From assembly GCF_051903065.1 (NCBI RefSeq), contig NZ_CP178438.1: 64,000 nt of DNA. One strand, given 5' to 3'. This document shows positions 2,653 to 21,120 of this stretch, piece by piece (position 1 is the first letter of the stretch; each line of letters begins with the position of its first letter). The DNA is from Escherichia coli (lineage in GTDB: Bacteria > Pseudomonadota > Gammaproteobacteria > Enterobacterales > Enterobacteriaceae). Both the position numbers and the translations under genes were made by a program. The notes beneath the pieces are model-generated. The model did not search any database and had not been told where the DNA came from. It saw only the letters and a program-made list of their open reading frames with translations.

Positions 2653-3708
2653 ATGCGTAAAATCATTCATGTGGATATGGACTGCTTTTTCGCCGCAGTG
2701 GAGATGCGCGACAATCCCGCCCTGCGCGATATCCCTATTGCTATTGGCGGCAGCCGCGAACGTCGGGGGGTGATCAGCACCGCCAATTATCCCGCGCGTA
2801 AATTTGGCGTACGCAGCGCTATGCCGACAGGGATGGCGCTCAAATTATGCCCACATCTCACCTTGCTTCCGGGGCGCTTTGACGCCTACAAAGAAGCCTC
2901 AAATCATATCCGTGAAATCTTCTCGCGCTACACCTCTCGCATTGAGCCGTTGTCACTGGATGAGGCTTATCTCGATGTCACCGACAGCGTCCATTGCCAC
3001 GGTTCTGCGACCCTCATCGCCCAGGAAATCCGCCAGACGATTTTCAGCGAGCTGCAACTGACGGCGTCTGCGGGCGTGGCGCCAGTAAAGTTTCTCGCCA
3101 AAATCGCCTCCGACATGAATAAACCCAACGGCCAGTTTGTGATTACGCCGGCAGAAGTTCCGACATTTTTACAAACCTTACCACTGGCAAAAATCCCCGG
3201 CGTCGGCAAAGTCTCGGCGGCAAAACTGGAAGCGATGGGGCTGCGGACCTGCGGTGATGTACAAAAGTGTGATCTGGTGATTCTGCTTAAACGCTTTGGC
3301 AAATTTGGCCGCATTTTGTGGGAGCGTAGTCAGGGGATTGACGAGCGCGACGTTAACAGCGAACGGTTACGAAAATCCGTCGGCGTGGAACGCACGATGG
3401 CGGAAGATATTCATCACTGGTCTGAATGTGAAGCGATTATCGAGCGGCTGTATCCGGAACTTGAACGCCGTCTGGCAAAGGTAAAACCTGATTTACTGAT
3501 TGCTCGCCAGGGAGTGAAATTAAAGTTCGACGATTTTCAGCAAACCACTCAGGAGCACGTCTGGCCGCGGCTGAATAAAGCTGACTTAATCGCCACCGCG
3601 CGTAAAACCTGGGATGAACGCCGCGGCGGGCGAGGTGTGCGACTGGTGGGGCTGCATGTGACGTTGCTTGACCCGCAAATGGAAAGACAACTGGTGCTGG
3701 GATTATGA
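2653..3708 (+). CDS. dinB: DNA polymerase IV
   Basis: 351 aa, N-terminus [22 protein letters not shown] characteristic of Y-family polymerase DinB. Confidence 0.95.
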
Positions 3709-4157
3709 ATAACATACAAATAAGAAACTATCAGCCTGGCGATTTTCAGCAACTATGCGCTATTTTCATTAGAGCGGTTATGATGACCGCCAGTCAGCAT
3801 TATTCACCACAACAAATTGCCGCCTGGGCGCAGATTGACGAATCTCGCTGGAAGGAGAAACTCGCGAAATCACAAGTGCGGGTTGCAGTCATTAATGCAC
3901 AACCGGTTGGTTTTATTTCCCGCATTGAACATTATATCGATATGTTATTTGTTGACCCTGAATACACCCGCCGTGGGGTTGCCAGTGCTTTGTTAAAACC
4001 TTGGATTAAGTCTGAATCCGAACTTACGGTGGACGCCAGCATAACCGCAAAACCCTTTTTTGAACGTTATGGTTTTCAGACAGTTAAGCAGCAGCGCGTT
4101 GAATGCCGGGGAGCGTGGTTTACTAATTTTTCTATGCGATATAAACCGCAACATTAA
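3705..4157 (+). CDS. yafP: GNAT-family acetyltransferase YafP
   Basis: 150 aa, 4-nt overlap with dinB stop; sequence matches YafP; yafN/yafO are absent between dinB and yafP. Confidence 0.85.
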
Positions 4158-12902: not shown

Positions 12903-12979
12903 GGCCGATATAGCTCAGTTGGTAGAGCAGCGCATTCGTAATGCGAAGGTCGTAGGTTCGACTCCTATTATCGGCACCA
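12903..12979 (+). tRNA. thrW: tRNA-Thr (CGU anticodon), prophage attachment site
   Basis: GCCGATATAGCTCAGTTGGTAGAGCAGCGCATTCGTAATGCGAAGG...TCGGCACCA cloverleaf ending in CCA, immediately followed by an integrase gene. Confidence 0.85.
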
Positions 12980-12993
12980 TTTAAATCAATAAG

Positions 12994-14157
12994 TTACACA
13001 TCATTAGTACCTTCCTTATTTTTTGACTGGGACAAATTTGGGACCGATGGGTTCAGGATCGAGTCTATTTGCCGTGCGTGTTCGGTAAGGTGATTAGGTG
13101 CAAGGTGAGCATATCGACGAACCATTTCGATAGACTCCCAGCCTCCCATTTCCTGTAACACTGACAACGGGACTCCGGCTTGAACTAGCCAACTTGCCCA
13201 GGTGTGTCTCAAGTCGTGAAATCTGAAATCATCAATACCAGCCCGTCTCAGCGCCGCTTTCCAGGCTGTGTTTGCGTCATACCGCATCTTCCTTACTGTT
13301 GGCGCTTTCGTTCCGTCTGGTTTGGTACAGCTTTCCTTGTACACAAATACCCAACGGTGATGATTCCCGATTTGTTTTTTCAAAACGCGACATGCAGTAT
13401 CATTCAGCGCAACGCCAATTGCGCGGTTTGATTTACTCTCTTCCGGGTTTATCCATGCCACCCGGCGCTGCATGTCTATTTGTTGCCATTCAAGGTTGAT
13501 GATGTTCGAGCGTCTTAAGCCTGTTGCCAGTGCAAATTCAACAACAGACTTTAATGGCTCCGGACATTCATCAATCAGCCTTTGTGCTTCATGGGGCTCC
13601 AGCCAGCGGATCCGTTTATTCTTTGGTTGAGGCACTTTAATAATTGGTGCCTTATCCAGCATTTTCCATTCACGCTCTGCGGCTCTTAGTAGGGCCTTTA
13701 TAAATGAAAGATGCGTAGCCTTCGTTGCAACGGACGCTGGTTTTGGCGTGTATTCTGGAACAGGTTTCCCTTTTTTTCTGCATGCTTCTGCCCTGAGTCT
13801 CCAGTTTTCCTCATGACGCCGGTTCGTCATTTTCTGCATTGCTGAATAAATTTTTGATTCAGTAATGTCTCTTAGTTGCATTCCTGCGAAATGTTGAAGC
13901 CAGAATCCGATCCGGCTTTTGTCATCGTCCAGTGATTTTTTATGTGCTTTCTCTTCAAGCCACCTGACACACGCTTCCTCGAACGTTATATCAGGTATTT
14001 CACCAAGTTTGCTGACCCGCCATGCTTCAGCCTTTAGCTTGTCATGGAGTTCTGTCGCCTGCCTTTTGTCCTTTGTTCCAAGAGACTGTTTAAATCTTTT
14101 ACCGTTCGGCAATGTGAAACTGGCGTACCATATTTCACCTCTGCGGAAGAGTGACAT
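12994..14157 (-). CDS. int: tyrosine integrase, P22 Int-like
   Basis: 387 aa, [31 protein letters not shown]..., catalytic [15 protein letters not shown]...VRRYAHL; adjacent to thrW. Confidence 0.95.
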
Positions 14158-16595: not shown

Positions 16596-16958
16596 TTAAC
16601 GACCTGCTGCGCGGAGTTTTCCGTCAGGTTCACCGGCAAGAGTCAGTAACTGTCCCTGGTCTTCCTGCAGAATAGTCAGGCGACCACCGCGATTGACATA
16701 CATCGGCGTTTCGGTGGTGTCTTCTTCGGAAATTTTCCCGCGGTTAGTCGGGCGAACATATGAGAGTTTGTGTTTGATTTTCACTCGGTTCTCATCAAAC
16801 GGTTCGATTTCCAGGTTGAGCGAGACCTTACCTTTGGTTTTCGTGTTCATCACACCGGAAGCGACTTCACTGAGAACTGCGCCGATTTTGGTTTCAAATA
16901 CGCCGCCGTCCAGCTCCCCGATAAATGCCTGCACATCAGTACTGCGTTCGCTAGCCAT
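16596..16958 (-). CDS. hypothetical prophage protein (YfdP-like by position)
   Basis: 120 aa from MASERSTDVQAF... with AGGAG RBS 8 nt upstream; the longer track ORF is a 5' extension. Confidence 0.5.
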   Translation of the reverse strand: MASERSTDVQAFIGELDGGVFETKIGAVLSEVASGVMNTKTKGKVSLNLEIEPFDENRVKIKHKLSYVRPTNRGKISEEDTTETPMYVNRGGRLTILQEDQGQLLTLAGEPDGKLRAAGR

Positions 16959-17090
16959 TTTGCTGCTCCTCATCATATCGACCCTGCAAGGTCGGTTAGT
17001 TTCTCCACAAAACAGAGAAGAACACCTGCGGTGACTGCCGCCCGGATGGATTGGGTTATGAGCCCGTCGTCCGGTGATGCTCTTCTCTGT

Positions 17091-17139
17091 TTTGTAAAAA
17101 GGACGGTACCAGCCGGAAGCAAGAGTACAAGCTGGTACC
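17091..17139 (-). terminator. intrinsic terminator (tL-like) upstream of the leftward early genes
   Basis: 9-bp stem GGTACCAGC/GCTGGTACC followed on the minus strand by a T-run. Confidence 0.5.
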
Positions 17140-17426
17140 GCCAAGACTACACACAGCATAAAGTTGTGGTGCCGGGTGCCTCCCGGTGCCTGGCGAAGGT
17201 TGCACACCAGGCGGGTGGGTATCCACAGAAGGTCGACTGTCAGCCTCAACCTTAACCCGCGTGCGCTGAGCCGCATTCACCACAACGCTAAGGATTCTCT
17301 CTGGTTGAAAATACTTAGCTGTTATGTGCCTGCTTTTAGCCACATCAGGCGAGGTGGACCTAGTTATTCCCCAACAACAAGGATTCGGTTAATCTGGTTA
17401 TCCCCAACAACGCAAAAGGAAAAGAA

Positions 17427-17861
17427 ATGTCCGGTAATATCTATACGCTGTACAAATCCCACTGTGAAAATGTTGGAAAGTATCGGGGCATTGAAATCAG
17501 TGGGGTAGTGTCATCAGTCGAAATAAGCAAAGTTGAATCAAGGGCAACATTACTTACTCTTTTGGACCTTGTCTTACATGAGCACCGGAAGAAATTCGGC
17601 ACTCCCTATAATCAGTTGAATGGGAAAAAGGCTCTGGTTCACCTTATTCTGATGAAGCATCACTGGATGCCAAAACAGATTAATGAGATGAAATTTGATG
17701 AACTTCTTCTTTCAATTCAGGATGAACTCACACTTGATAAAATAAGCGTAACCGCCCAGAAATTTTTAGATTATCGAGACTGGAGATCACAAATTCATCA
17801 CTTTGATGATTTTGACGAAAATGAATGGGATCCTAATTTGTCTGCACAATATCTAAAGTAA
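17427..17861 (+). CDS. hypothetical AT-rich moron protein in immunity region
   Basis: 144 aa ORF on the opposite strand to flanking early genes; preceded by two GTTAT(T)CCCCAACAAC direct repeats. Confidence 0.55.
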   Translation: MSGNIYTLYKSHCENVGKYRGIEISGVVSSVEISKVESRATLLTLLDLVLHEHRKKFGTPYNQLNGKKALVHLILMKHHWMPKQINEMKFDELLLSIQDELTLDKISVTAQKFLDYRDWRSQIHHFDDFDENEWDPNLSAQYLK

Positions 17862-18039
17862 CATCCTGTGATAAAACCGTGATTTCCTGATCCAGTTTTT
17901 TTAAGGAGTCTATTGTTTCCTGTCGATAAGACAGCACTTCACGAAGCTGGTTTATAGCTGCCAGCTTCTTTGTCATCCACTCATAAATTTCCTCATCTGT
18001 GTAGCCAGGCGCGACGATTTTGGGTTCTGTTTTGTGCAT
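17833..18039 (-). CDS. small hypothetical protein, first gene of leftward (pL-like) transcript
   Basis: 68 aa from MHKTEPKIV with GAGGAG RBS 7 nt upstream; overlaps the 3' end of the convergent gene. Confidence 0.45.
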   Translation of the reverse strand: MHKTEPKIVAPGYTDEEIYEWMTKKLAAINQLREVLSYRQETIDSLKKLDQEITVLSQDVTLDIVQTN

Positions 18040-18098
18040 TTCACATCTCCTCAAGTTATCAGTTACTTGTTGATGGGGACCAGATTGTTAAAGAGCTA

Positions 18099-18122
18099 AG
18101 CGTCCTGTAGGGCGCTTTTTTG
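18099..18122 (+). terminator. intrinsic terminator
   Basis: AGCGTCC-loop-GGGCGCT hairpin followed by TTTTTT. Confidence 0.5.
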
Positions 18123-18196
18123 TTGCTAACGAATCATCCTGGACTTCATATGCTCCAGGCGGCTACTTCGTGGGCGTCCTGCCTGTTCGTTGTTTC

Positions 18197-18234
18197 GCTT
18201 GGGTACATTATGTATCTCAAAGGTACATTGTCAA
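18197..18234. promoter_or_regulatory. OL-like operator/promoter region
   Basis: GGTACA half-sites (CTTGGGTACATT...AAGGTACATTGTCAAG) related to the OR palindromes. Confidence 0.45.
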
Positions 18235-18235
18235 G

Positions 18236-18260
18236 TATAAAAAAACCTGCCGAAGCAGGT
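18236..18260 (-). terminator. intrinsic terminator downstream of cI
   Basis: ACCTGC-CGAA-GCAGGT hairpin followed by a T-run on the minus strand, just after the cI stop. Confidence 0.55.
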
Positions 18261-18273
18261 TCATAAACATTGA

Positions 18274-18948
18274 TTAGGCTTTGATTTTGTATCTTCTTGG
18301 TTTTCCTGAGAAAATCACTGTACCAATTATAGAGCAATTACCGTTGATCTTAATGTAAGGCTCAGGCCAGTTTGGGTTTAACGCTTTGAGATAACGCTGT
18401 GTCCCATCTTCTATCAACCTTTTGAAGGTGGTTTCGCCTGTATCGTGCATCAATGCAATAACGTCGTCACCGTGGCAGGCAGGTACTTCAGGATCGACAA
18501 AAATCATGTCTCCCGGGCGGTACTCATCAATCATTGAATCACCTATCACCCGCAAGATATAAGTCATTTCCCCACAGGGTACAGGGCAGGGATACGTTTC
18601 TGCTGTGCTCAAATCAACCTCAGAATATCCAACTTCTTTCCATGCTCCGGCCTGTACCCATGATATGACAGGGACTAATGTGATTTGTTTATTAGTGATT
18701 GAAACATCAGGTTTTTTTGTGATGTTCGTTGTCTGGTGTTCTTGATCGAGCCATCCGACAGGCAGGTCGAAACATTTTTCGATGTGTCGTGCCATGCTGT
18801 CACCGATATTTTTAGTAGCACCATCTCCCATAAACCTGCTGGTCTGGGTTGGCTCGCGATCAATCATAGTGGCAAAGGAAGAATTCCCGCCAACACCATC
18901 TCTCAGTTTTCTGGCGTTAGACCGCCGGATGTCATGGATTGTTTTCAT
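18274..18948 (-). CDS. cI: CI-like repressor (HTH + S24 LexA-like peptidase domain)
   Basis: 224 aa, C-terminal S24 motifs (VIGDSM...YRPGDMIFVDPE...GDDVIALMHDTGETTFKRL); divergent from cro. Confidence 0.9.
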   Translation of the reverse strand: MKTIHDIRRSNARKLRDGVGGNSSFATMIDREPTQTSRFMGDGATKNIGDSMARHIEKCFDLPVGWLDQEHQTTNITKKPDVSITNKQITLVPVISWVQAGAWKEVGYSEVDLSTAETYPCPVPCGEMTYILRVIGDSMIDEYRPGDMIFVDPEVPACHGDDVIALMHDTGETTFKRLIEDGTQRYLKALNPNWPEPYIKINGNCSIIGTVIFSGKPRRYKIKA

Positions 18949-20178: not shown

Positions 20179-21120
20179 ATGAGCACTAAATTAACCGGCT
20201 ATGTATGGGATGGTTGCGCTGCGTCAGGCATGAAATTATCCAGCGTGGCAATTATGGCCCGCCTGGCTGATTTCAGTAATGACGAAGGTGTGTGCTGGCC
20301 ATCAATTGAAACCATTGCCCGTCAGATTGGCGCGGGGATGAGTACCGTCAGAACGGCTATCGCACGGCTGGAAGCAGAAGGCTGGTTAACGCGTAAGGCG
20401 CGTCGCCAGGGTAACCGCAATGCGTCGAATGTTTATCAGCTTAACGTTGCGAAGCTTCAGGCAGCGGCATTTTCTCAACTGTCAGATTCTGACCCGTCAA
20501 AATCTGACGCATCAAAATCTGACCCGTCAAAATTTGATGCGTCGAAATCTGGCAAAAAAGCGGGTTTTCACCCGTCAGAATCTGGCGGGGATCCGTCAGT
20601 AAAATCAAAACATGATCCGTCAGATAAAAAAACTTCTCGTCCGGACGCTTCGCAACCGGACACGCAGACGGCTGAACAGGAGTTTTTAACTCGCCATCCT
20701 GATGCGGTTGTATTCAGCCCTAAAAAGCGCCAGTGGGGAACGCAGGATGATTTGACCTGCGCACAGTGGCTCTGGAAAAAAATCATCGCCCTGTACGAGC
20801 TGGCCGCCGAATGTGACGGCGAGGTGGTTCGTCCCAAAGAACCGAACTGGACAGCCTGGGCAAACGAAATTCGCCTGATGTGTGTGCAGGATGGTCGTAC
20901 TCACAAACAAATCTGCGAGATGTACAGCCGCGTCAGCCGCGATCCGTTCTGGTGCCGTAACGTGCTCAGCCCGTCGAAGCTGCGGGAAAAATGGGATGAG
21001 CTTTCCCTGCGCTTATCGCCGTCCATCAGCACATACACAGAAAAACGCGAAGACCCGTATTTCAAATCCAGTTACGACAACGTGGACTACAGCCAGATCC
21101 CGGCAGGATTCAGGGGGTGA
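20179..21120 (+). CDS. replication initiation protein (O-like)
   Basis: 313 aa, N-terminal HTH region, low-complexity SKSD repeats, conserved C-terminal domain; iterons within the gene. Confidence 0.75.
   Translation: MSTKLTGYVWDGCAASGMKLSSVAIMARLADFSNDEGVCWPSIETIARQIGAGMSTVRTAIARLEAEGWLTRKARRQGNRNASNVYQLNVAKLQAAAFSQLSDSDPSKSDASKSDPSKFDASKSGKKAGFHPSESGGDPSVKSKHDPSDKKTSRPDASQPDTQTAEQEFLTRHPDAVVFSPKKRQWGTQDDLTCAQWLWKKIIALYELAAECDGEVVRPKEPNWTAWANEIRLMCVQDGRTHKQICEMYSRVSRDPFWCRNVLSPSKLREKWDELSLRLSPSISTYTEKREDPYFKSSYDNVDYSQIPAGFRG
20470..20600 (+). repeat. origin iterons within the replication gene
   Basis: Tandem CCGTCAAAATCTGA-like repeats (at least five) followed by an A-rich stretch. Confidence 0.65.

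Follow-up and report, generated by a model that had tools for sequence, protein, structure and literature searches.

A convergent ECs1072-family and ydfC-like gene pair in a variable cargo slot downstream of pL in an Escherichia coli prophage

Two small convergent genes of a lambdoid prophage in Escherichia coli are described here. They lie in a stretch of 64,000 nucleotides from contig NZ_CP178438.1 (RefSeq assembly GCF_051903065.1), which as a whole is referred to as the window. The larger gene encodes a 144 amino acid protein of the ECs1072 family and the smaller one a 68 amino acid homologue of YdfC. We read the pair as a convergent cassette in a variable slot downstream of the pL promoter, consisting of an accessory gene that would be expressed in lysogeny and a YdfC-like partner that would be made in the lytic phase. 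The probability of this architecture is estimated at about 0.55, and the biology of the effector and partner model set out below is held to be less probable than the architecture. Coordinates of all features are collected in Table 1.

A preliminary description of the region, made from the sequence alone, had noted an AT-rich rightward open reading frame (ORF) of 144 amino acids, a pair of repeats before it and a convergent gene of 68 amino acids, and all of these are present to within about 1 nt. The rightward ORF is a genuine gene; it belongs to the ECs1072 family, which has a name but is uncharacterised. The sequence AAGGAAAAG stands 6 nt before its ATG, its GC content is 0.38 compared with 0.50 for the window, and residues 4-144 match the NCBIfam model NF033230 ('ECs1072 family phage-associated protein') with 157.8 bits against a cut-off of 70. 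The protein also gave a full-length match to phrog_5286 (1.5e-90), which is the same family as NF033230. An exhaustive search gave 65 clusters at 50% identity, mostly of 143-157 amino acids. His72 and Trp134 are invariant in the family alignment and Arg54 is nearly so. The AlphaFold2 model built on 43 sequences is a compact all-alpha domain with a predicted local distance difference test score (pLDDT) of 93.5 and a predicted template modelling score (pTM) of 0.88. A HEPN-like Rx4-6H motif was considered and rejected, Arg54 and His72 being 18 residues apart in the alignment.

Distant relatives with 25-40% identity are found in ST64B of Salmonella, in Klebsiella phage KPP5665-2, in metagenomic and genomic contigs and in prophage Sp4 of E. 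coli O157 Sakai, which carries ECs1072 itself. A search of plasmids showed that the family is essentially prophage-bound, and a search for related loci with one subgroup of the family gave mostly Klebsiella prophages with 99% identity. Profile and structure searches, proposed as a check in the preliminary description, returned the ECs1072 family, no known regulatory family and no structural relative, the profile search of PDB being without a match. Pfam gave no match for the single protein or for any of the 43 family members, and no family other than ECs1072, regulatory or enzymatic, was matched in Pfam or NCBIfam. Neither the 144 nor the 68 amino acid protein matched a family in PADLOC-DB 2.0.0 at E <= 0.1.

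The smaller protein shows 41% identity over 66 amino acids to YdfC of the Qin prophage in strain K-12 (BLASTP, E 9e-18) and matches phrog_1744 (6e-35); no Pfam model exists for the YdfC family. Its ATG is preceded at 8 nt by GAGGAG, and it is the first ORF 3' of pL. The repressor-controlled dicBF operon of Qin includes ydfC (PMC5069750), and this fits a place for the 68 amino acid gene at the start of the pL transcript. It had been given this place before, and its position directly 3' of pL and its homology to ydfC bear this out. Since the small gene would be first in the pL transcript, leftward early transcription would cross the larger gene antisense; this too had been proposed, and it follows from the position of pL and the order of the genes.

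The overlap of the two 3' ends had been taken as incidental. Across the loci compared it is instead the most conserved feature of the ECs1072 family. A convergent YdfC-like ORF overlaps the 3' end of the family gene in at least 12 independent loci, and in every locus with a recognisable partner the overlap measures from 29 to about 200 bp. The small ORFs share the N-terminal motif of YdfC, P-x-I-x-x-P-G-x-T-x-x-E-(L/I)-x-x-W-(L/M)-x-x-K, and then continue as a long helix. The pairing is found downstream of pL in the window and in four further loci of the comparison (L006, L007, L009 and L010), in the pR operon in Sp4, L095 and L011/L012, and between Q and the holin gene in ST64B and the Klebsiella phages. 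In each paired locus the YdfC-like gene runs along the lytic operon and the ECs1072-family gene opposes it. The late-operon versions have the small gene directly after a promoter and terminator resembling pR'-tR', and in the window it comes after pL, a hairpin and a boxA. The conserved pairing suggests a two-gene unit.

A terminator-like hairpin on the plus strand, serving the larger gene, was found inside the small ORF in eight of 11 loci (17943-17968 in the window), while shuffled sequences gave about 0.1 such hairpins expected by chance for a stretch of that size. The tail-to-tail overlap and the terminator inside the small ORF mean that at least 100 nt of the two transcripts would be complementary. 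Two details of the shared coding sequence were also seen. In the Klebsiella/Salmonella clade the palindrome TGGGATCCCA reads as Trp-Asp-Pro in either direction (L004 3645-3715; L005 3697-3791), the larger protein reading ...DWDP... and the smaller one ...PWDPSP.... In the window a synonymous change from CCC to CCT in the larger gene (17826-17835) makes the TAG stop codon of the smaller gene.

Expression in lysogeny is seen in relatives of the larger gene. Owen et al. 2020 named STMMW_20121 of ST64B in Salmonella Typhimurium D23580 as a candidate accessory locus and found it transcribed in lysogens from its own promoter and transcription start site (PMC7067206). In their Table S5 it spans 2090066-2090500 (435 bp) beside the holin gene and overlaps STMMW_20131 (360 bp) by 71 bp (PMC7067206); the lengths and the overlap are exactly those of the ST64B family member and sb50. 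The level of STMMW_20121 is 60-270 transcripts per million (TPM) in 16 of 17 conditions, comparable with that of the BTP1 genes bstA and cI, while the neighbouring lytic genes are at 0.1-40 TPM, with the holin gene at 0.3-33 and sb49 at 1.5-7 (PMC7067206). A drop of STMMW_20121 on peroxide or nitric oxide shock (from 269 to about 110 TPM) was not used as a sign of interference, as only a minority of cells is induced. ECs1072 of Sakai is among the genes that change at a growth transition in a microarray study of a lysogen (PMC2241611). By analogy with these relatives the window gene may be transcribed rightward in the lysogen. A lack of transcription in the lysogen, which the preliminary description had named as speaking against its proposal, is not what is seen for STMMW_20121, the closest homologue studied (PMC7067206).

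Several observations weigh against a lysogenic effector with a lytic partner. The annotated partner in ST64B, STMMW_20131, also reaches 23-258 TPM in lysogens (PMC7067206). Some 100 nt ahead of the true start fall within its annotation, a promoter and a terminator being predicted there, and by our interpretation the signal may be that of a 6S-like short RNA (pR'-tR'). A consensus scan of the plus strand gave no consensus sigma-70 promoter upstream of the larger gene in the window. Our own reading of the sequence, outside the scan, gave a weak candidate promoter, TTCCCC-17-TAATCT (17367-17372 and 17390-17395), which matches at 6 of 12 positions; Ec042 reads TATAAT at the same spot. It is probable that the repeat region contains a weak promoter belonging to the gene itself. 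In three very distant members a YdfC-like partner was not recognised: L094 and L096 have a convergent, overlapping coiled-coil ORF, and L097 has no convergent ORF of at least 40 amino acids. The profile searches gave no likeness to a defence or regulatory family that would serve as a functional handle.

The remaining observations of this kind also fit an ordinary moron of a single gene, whose protein would change host physiology or phage sensitivity by itself and in which the YdfC-like gene was a neighbour in the backbone at the first insertion and the overlap hinders separation of the two by recombination. YdfC proper is solitary, without the partner, in Qin and in 19 phage records, and the slot holds cargos of a single gene elsewhere. 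The co-variation of the two proteins (Mantel mirror-tree test, r = 0.77) is not significant outside one close clade (r = 0.21, p = 0.11 without it). A fused AlphaFold2 model with a glycine-serine linker and paired rows had a pTM of 0.62, given without the predicted aligned error, and shows the small protein as one long helix of high confidence. However, the pair has moved jointly among three operons and between phages of several types, and it persists at identities as low as 25-30%; synteny over such divergence in mosaic lambdoid genomes is usually due to selection, and the design with a terminator inside the ORF is conserved as well. The single-gene moron is regarded as rather unlikely.

The leftward transcription that would give the small protein starts at a pL promoter with operator repeats. 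GGTACA half-sites at 18202 and 18222 recur around pR/pRM, and five GGTACA sites lie in the approximately 825 bp from the pL region to cro, compared with 0.5 per kb in the window. By this enrichment of the half-sites, repressor control of leftward transcription is well supported. On the minus strand the sequence 18098-18122 forms a hairpin just 5' of the boxA-like element, and this hairpin is kept in L009, PhiR29_1, UTI89 and Ec042. The element AGCTCTTTAACAA matches the rrn boxA consensus TGCTCTTTAACAA at 12 of 13 positions. Its core, GCTCTTTAA(C/A)AAT, is invariant in eight loci with different cargo, even where the upstream leader differs, and is directly followed by CTGG in seven of the eight. 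A hairpin followed by boxA is the order of the rrn leaders (boxB, boxA).

Antitermination by boxA and Nus factors lets transcripts resist Rho. Between the stop codon of the small gene (17833) and yfdP (16958) the pL transcript contains about 875 nt of untranslated RNA, including the antisense of the accessory gene, and the boxA would let it resist Rho over this stretch. These motifs provide a lead towards early-left antitermination that would depend on Nus factors and be independent of N. No obvious N gene is seen at this position in the phage.

The model for the cassette combines these elements. In the lysogen cI would keep pL off, so that only the accessory protein would be made, and rightward transcription of the accessory gene would oppose leaky leftward read-through. 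Upon induction the derepressed pL transcript with its boxA-type anti-Rho signal would yield the YdfC-like protein, which in the other contexts would come from pR or Q-dependent transcription. The leftward transcript would cross the accessory gene antisense and reach the genes from yfdP to xis-int, and collision together with antisense pairing would silence the accessory gene. That the pair is conserved suggests a further role for the YdfC-like protein, which would counteract the accessory protein and so make the prophage immune to its own effector. The effector would act in lysogens, most plausibly on superinfecting phages or on the stability of lysogeny, and would spare the lytic growth of its own phage. 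What the data show are the identities of the genes, the nature of the insert as a cassette, the conserved convergent overlap, the terminators predicted inside the small ORF and the transcription of a homologue in lysogeny. The promoter position, the reciprocal expression, the antagonism between the proteins and the biological target are those parts of the model that we infer.

That the effector defends against superinfecting phages appears doubtful. A wider scheme, in which ECs1072 and YdfC make up a two-component prophage system with an orphan all-alpha effector, a lytic-phase antidote and reciprocal expression fixed by the overlapping convergent transcription, and in which the solitary YdfC proteins of Qin, PPompW and Stx phages are counter-measures, is considered unlikely.

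The main role of the unit could alternatively be at the level of RNA and transcription, as a convergent insulator against leaky read-through from pL or pR' into toxic early or lysis genes, with the proteins secondary. The unit always opposes the lytic operon and is placed just after a promoter-terminator pair, before the holin gene or the early-left genes; both the 3' overlap and the terminators within the ORF have been conserved, and the boxA of the leader suggests regulated passage. The conserved and confidently predicted fold with its invariant His72 and Trp134 and near-invariant Arg54 nevertheless points to selection on the protein. Other cargos of the slot would insulate equally well, and the specific pairing would be left without an explanation. 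A role as insulator is considered improbable.

The cassette occupies a slot with variable content. Homology with SfV ends at 17357 and resumes at 18128, and that with PhiR29_1 ends at 17411 and resumes at 18064. In SfV the slot contains the leftward orf33 (phrog_3195), in PhiR29_1 and an O157 Rac-like prophage a rightward phrog_1244 gene, in UTI89 a phrog_7681 and in Ec042 a phrog_6315 gene. The conserved flanks thus hold at least five different cargos, all without annotated function, and for the four alternative cargos no family in PADLOC-DB 2.0.0 was found at E <= 0.1. Among 5,426 complete E. coli genomes, 409 contain the cassette of the window in full. Its GC content is 0.39, compared with 0.47-0.53 in the flanking early regions and 0.50 in the window. 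The earlier assignment as a moron-type insert agrees with these data: the gene is on the opposite strand, AT-rich and replaced by other cargo in sister phages, it is present or absent between conserved backbone genes, its base composition is deviant and it has a predicted terminator of its own. In L009 the boundary segment of about 50 bp is found twice (2848-2898 and 3697-3748), each time before a rightward cargo gene, which suggests tandem cargo slots derived from the same linker.

Two repeat copies upstream of the start had been interpreted as possible sites for a regulator. The copies are there, as an exact 11-mer, TCCCCAACAAC, that occurs twice 33 bp apart. One such pair in 64 kb is marginally beyond chance, about 0.6 being expected by our estimate, and the repeat does not recur elsewhere in the window. 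A third copy, inverted and located at 18066-18088, had been missed. The interpretation as regulator sites found no support. The second repeat belongs to the left arm of an inverted repeat enclosing the slot, and the first is an additional partial copy, 33 bp further upstream. Both direct copies are kept before different cargo genes in PhiR29_1, the O157 Rac-like prophage, Ec042 and L009; in L009, where the larger protein is 26% identical, both read CAACAGT. Pairs of arms were found in seven loci with different cargo, all beginning with AATCTGG and with each left arm about 35 nt before the ATG of the cargo gene. In UTI89 both arms have changed jointly to AATCTGGATGACT.

Judged by these comparisons the inverted arms bound the variable slot. 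They could be the ends of a cassette or duplicates of a 5' leader, or they could pair over a long range into a stem of the pL transcript. DNA inversion by way of the arms was rejected, since none of the 409 full-length matches in E. coli (each covering at least 80% of the query in one place and on one strand) is inverted. The idea of operators for a dedicated regulator of the rightward gene would agree with the conserved spacing of 33 bp, with the palindrome GGATATCC present in the arms at most loci and with a copy before each of the two genes. The cassette, however, encodes no candidate regulator, and the modules of ST64B and Klebsiella are without the motif. The arms are an inverted pair that bounds the cargo, their joint change in UTI89 is to a sequence that is not palindromic, and cassette ends or an RNA stem fit them at least as well. 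Operators of this kind are very improbable.

Table 1. Positions of the described features in the window
Feature	Position	Strand	Remark
int	12994-14157	-	early-left side
yfdP homologue	16596-16958	-	early-left operon
STnc100/PasD-like structured RNA	17093-17316	-	Rfam RF02076, below gathering score; own terminator 17104-17140
Conserved boundary segment TTAGCTGTTATGTGCCTGCTTTTAGCCACATCAGGCGAGGTGG	17307-17357		common to SfV and others
Direct repeat copy 1, GTTATTCCCCAACAAC	17363-17378	+	overlaps weak candidate -35 TTCCCC
Inverted-repeat left arm AATCTGGTTATCCCCAACAAC, 21 nt	17391-17411	+	15 nt before ATG
Direct repeat copy 2, GTTATCCCCAACAAC	17397-17411	+	inside left arm
ECs1072-family accessory gene, 144 amino acids	17427-17861	+	against direction of early-left operon
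Overlap of the two 3' ends	17833-17861	both	29 bp
YdfC-family gene, 68 amino acids	18039-17833	-	predicted first gene of pL transcript
Predicted terminator-like hairpin for larger gene	17943-17977	+	antisense within small ORF
Inverted-repeat right arm AATCTGGTCCCCATCAACAAG	18088-18066	-	5' leader of small gene
boxA-like element AGCTCTTTAACAA	18097->18085	-	pL leader, about 100 nt after pL, directly 5' of right arm
G+C hairpin with T-run	18098-18122	+	predicted plus-strand terminator (18098-18117) at the end of the cargo unit
pL promoter TTGACA-16-CATAAT with repressor operator repeats	18191-18234 (promoter 18234->18207)	-	promoter scan
cI	18274-18948	-	own terminator 18262-18243

The prophage in the window is a lambdoid prophage of the SfIV/SfV type, with 98% identity to Shigella phage SfIV over 16900-18300 and, by sequence comparison, close also to SfV and several E. 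coli phages. After int the genes on the minus strand are xis and homologues of yfdT, eaE, an HD hydrolase gene, yfdQ and yfdP. Beyond yfdP follow the cassette, pL and then cI, with cro and the replication genes on the plus strand. A tRNA gene adjoins the integrase gene (12904-12976, plus strand, 71.8 bits in Rfam); read by alignment, its anticodon is CGU and the tRNA is tRNA-Thr, in agreement with the insertion of an SfV/SfIV-type prophage at thrW. In the replication (O-like) gene a repetitive stretch on the plus strand (20480-20554), which encodes SDPSK/SDASK units and gave a spurious match to a microRNA in Rfam, is probably an iteron or origin region.

The STnc100-like RNA scored 43.4 bits with RF02076 (gathering score 47, E 8e-07) over the full length of the model, and its fold had a z-score of -2.9. 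It lies head-to-head with the ECs1072-family gene at a distance of about 110 bp. The same head-to-head arrangement is found in KPP5665-2 (108 bits), L007 and L009, and an STnc100-like stretch also lies 3' of dicF in Qin. STnc100 and PasD have been reported as related families (bioRxiv 10.64898/2026.05.13.724894). The annotated ORF SfIV_35 of SfIV, which corresponds to 17164-17508 on the plus strand of the window, runs antisense across this RNA and is probably spurious. A long hairpin with a closing stem of 25 bp (16990-17100, minus strand, -51 kcal/mol, z-score -7.6) separates the terminator of the STnc100-like RNA from yfdP and forms part of the 5' leader of that gene.

The sequence of the cassette is present in identical form in public phage genomes and the larger protein belongs to a family with a name. 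In the literature searched no mention was found of the convergent pairing, the embedded terminator or the cargo slot bounded by boxA. The cassette is common, being found in the serotype-converting Shigella phage SfIV and, as diverged relatives, in ST64B, Sakai Sp4 and many Klebsiella prophages. The pairing gives a concrete hypothesis of an effector and a lytic partner for an abundant class of genes expressed in lysogens, and possibly a first functional lead for YdfC, the product of a y-gene in K-12. The slot next to pL, with its conserved ends and boxA, could be mined for uncharacterised accessory genes.

Compared with known systems, the window gene is most directly related to STMMW_20121 of ST64B, which has about 30% identity to it, is likewise 144 amino acids long, runs against the lytic genes and shares 71 bp with a convergent YdfC-like ORF (sb50/STMMW_20131). 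STMMW_20121 differs in its position in the late operon, between a Q-like gene and the holin gene, and in being without the CCCCAACAAC/AATCTGG repeats. Qin ydfC resembles the 68 amino acid gene in being part of a repressor-controlled early-left operon and in standing upstream of a region for small RNAs (dicF and the STnc100-like stretch), but no ECs1072-family gene converges on it, and ydfA and ydfB come before it, whereas the 68 amino acid gene is the first.

The preliminary description had likened the position of the gene to that of rexAB and sieB in lambda. These are also accessory genes in or near the immunity region of a lambdoid phage and, as would be expected here, act in the lysogen. 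The rex genes share a transcript with cI and occupy the interval from cI to pL; RexB, like SieB, is a membrane protein. The cassette, in contrast, lies beyond pL on the opposite strand and has no sequence or profile similarity to them in PADLOC, Pfam or NCBIfam, so that the likeness is a loose one of position without homology. The two proteins are acidic and hydrophilic, with grand average of hydropathy (GRAVY) values of -0.47 and -0.50, which argues against a membrane mechanism of the Rex or SieB type; no membrane component was found by these values and the compact all-alpha model, no dedicated transmembrane predictor having been used. A type II toxin-antitoxin module was rejected: such modules are bicistronic, with both genes in one direction, and show a known toxin or antitoxin fold, which is not the case for the two genes. 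The gene is thus outside the rexAB and sieB families, the PADLOC families and the type II toxin-antitoxin modules.

The pair is similar to oop RNA and cII of lambda in having convergent transcripts that overlap at their 3' ends in a lambdoid regulatory region, and in convergent antisense pairs of the oop/cII type mutual interference is expected. It differs in that both partners encode conserved proteins and in that the pairing moves as a cassette between operons. BstA-aba of BTP1 shares with the proposed logic a gene of the immunity region that is expressed in lysogeny together with an element that spares the lytic cycle of its own phage (PMC8585504). BstA is unrelated in sequence, its gene follows cI in the same direction, and the element for self-immunity is a DNA site and not another protein gene (PMC8585504). 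By its logic, and by its logic only, BstA-aba may be taken as the nearest functional analogy to the ECs1072-family gene and its YdfC-like partner.

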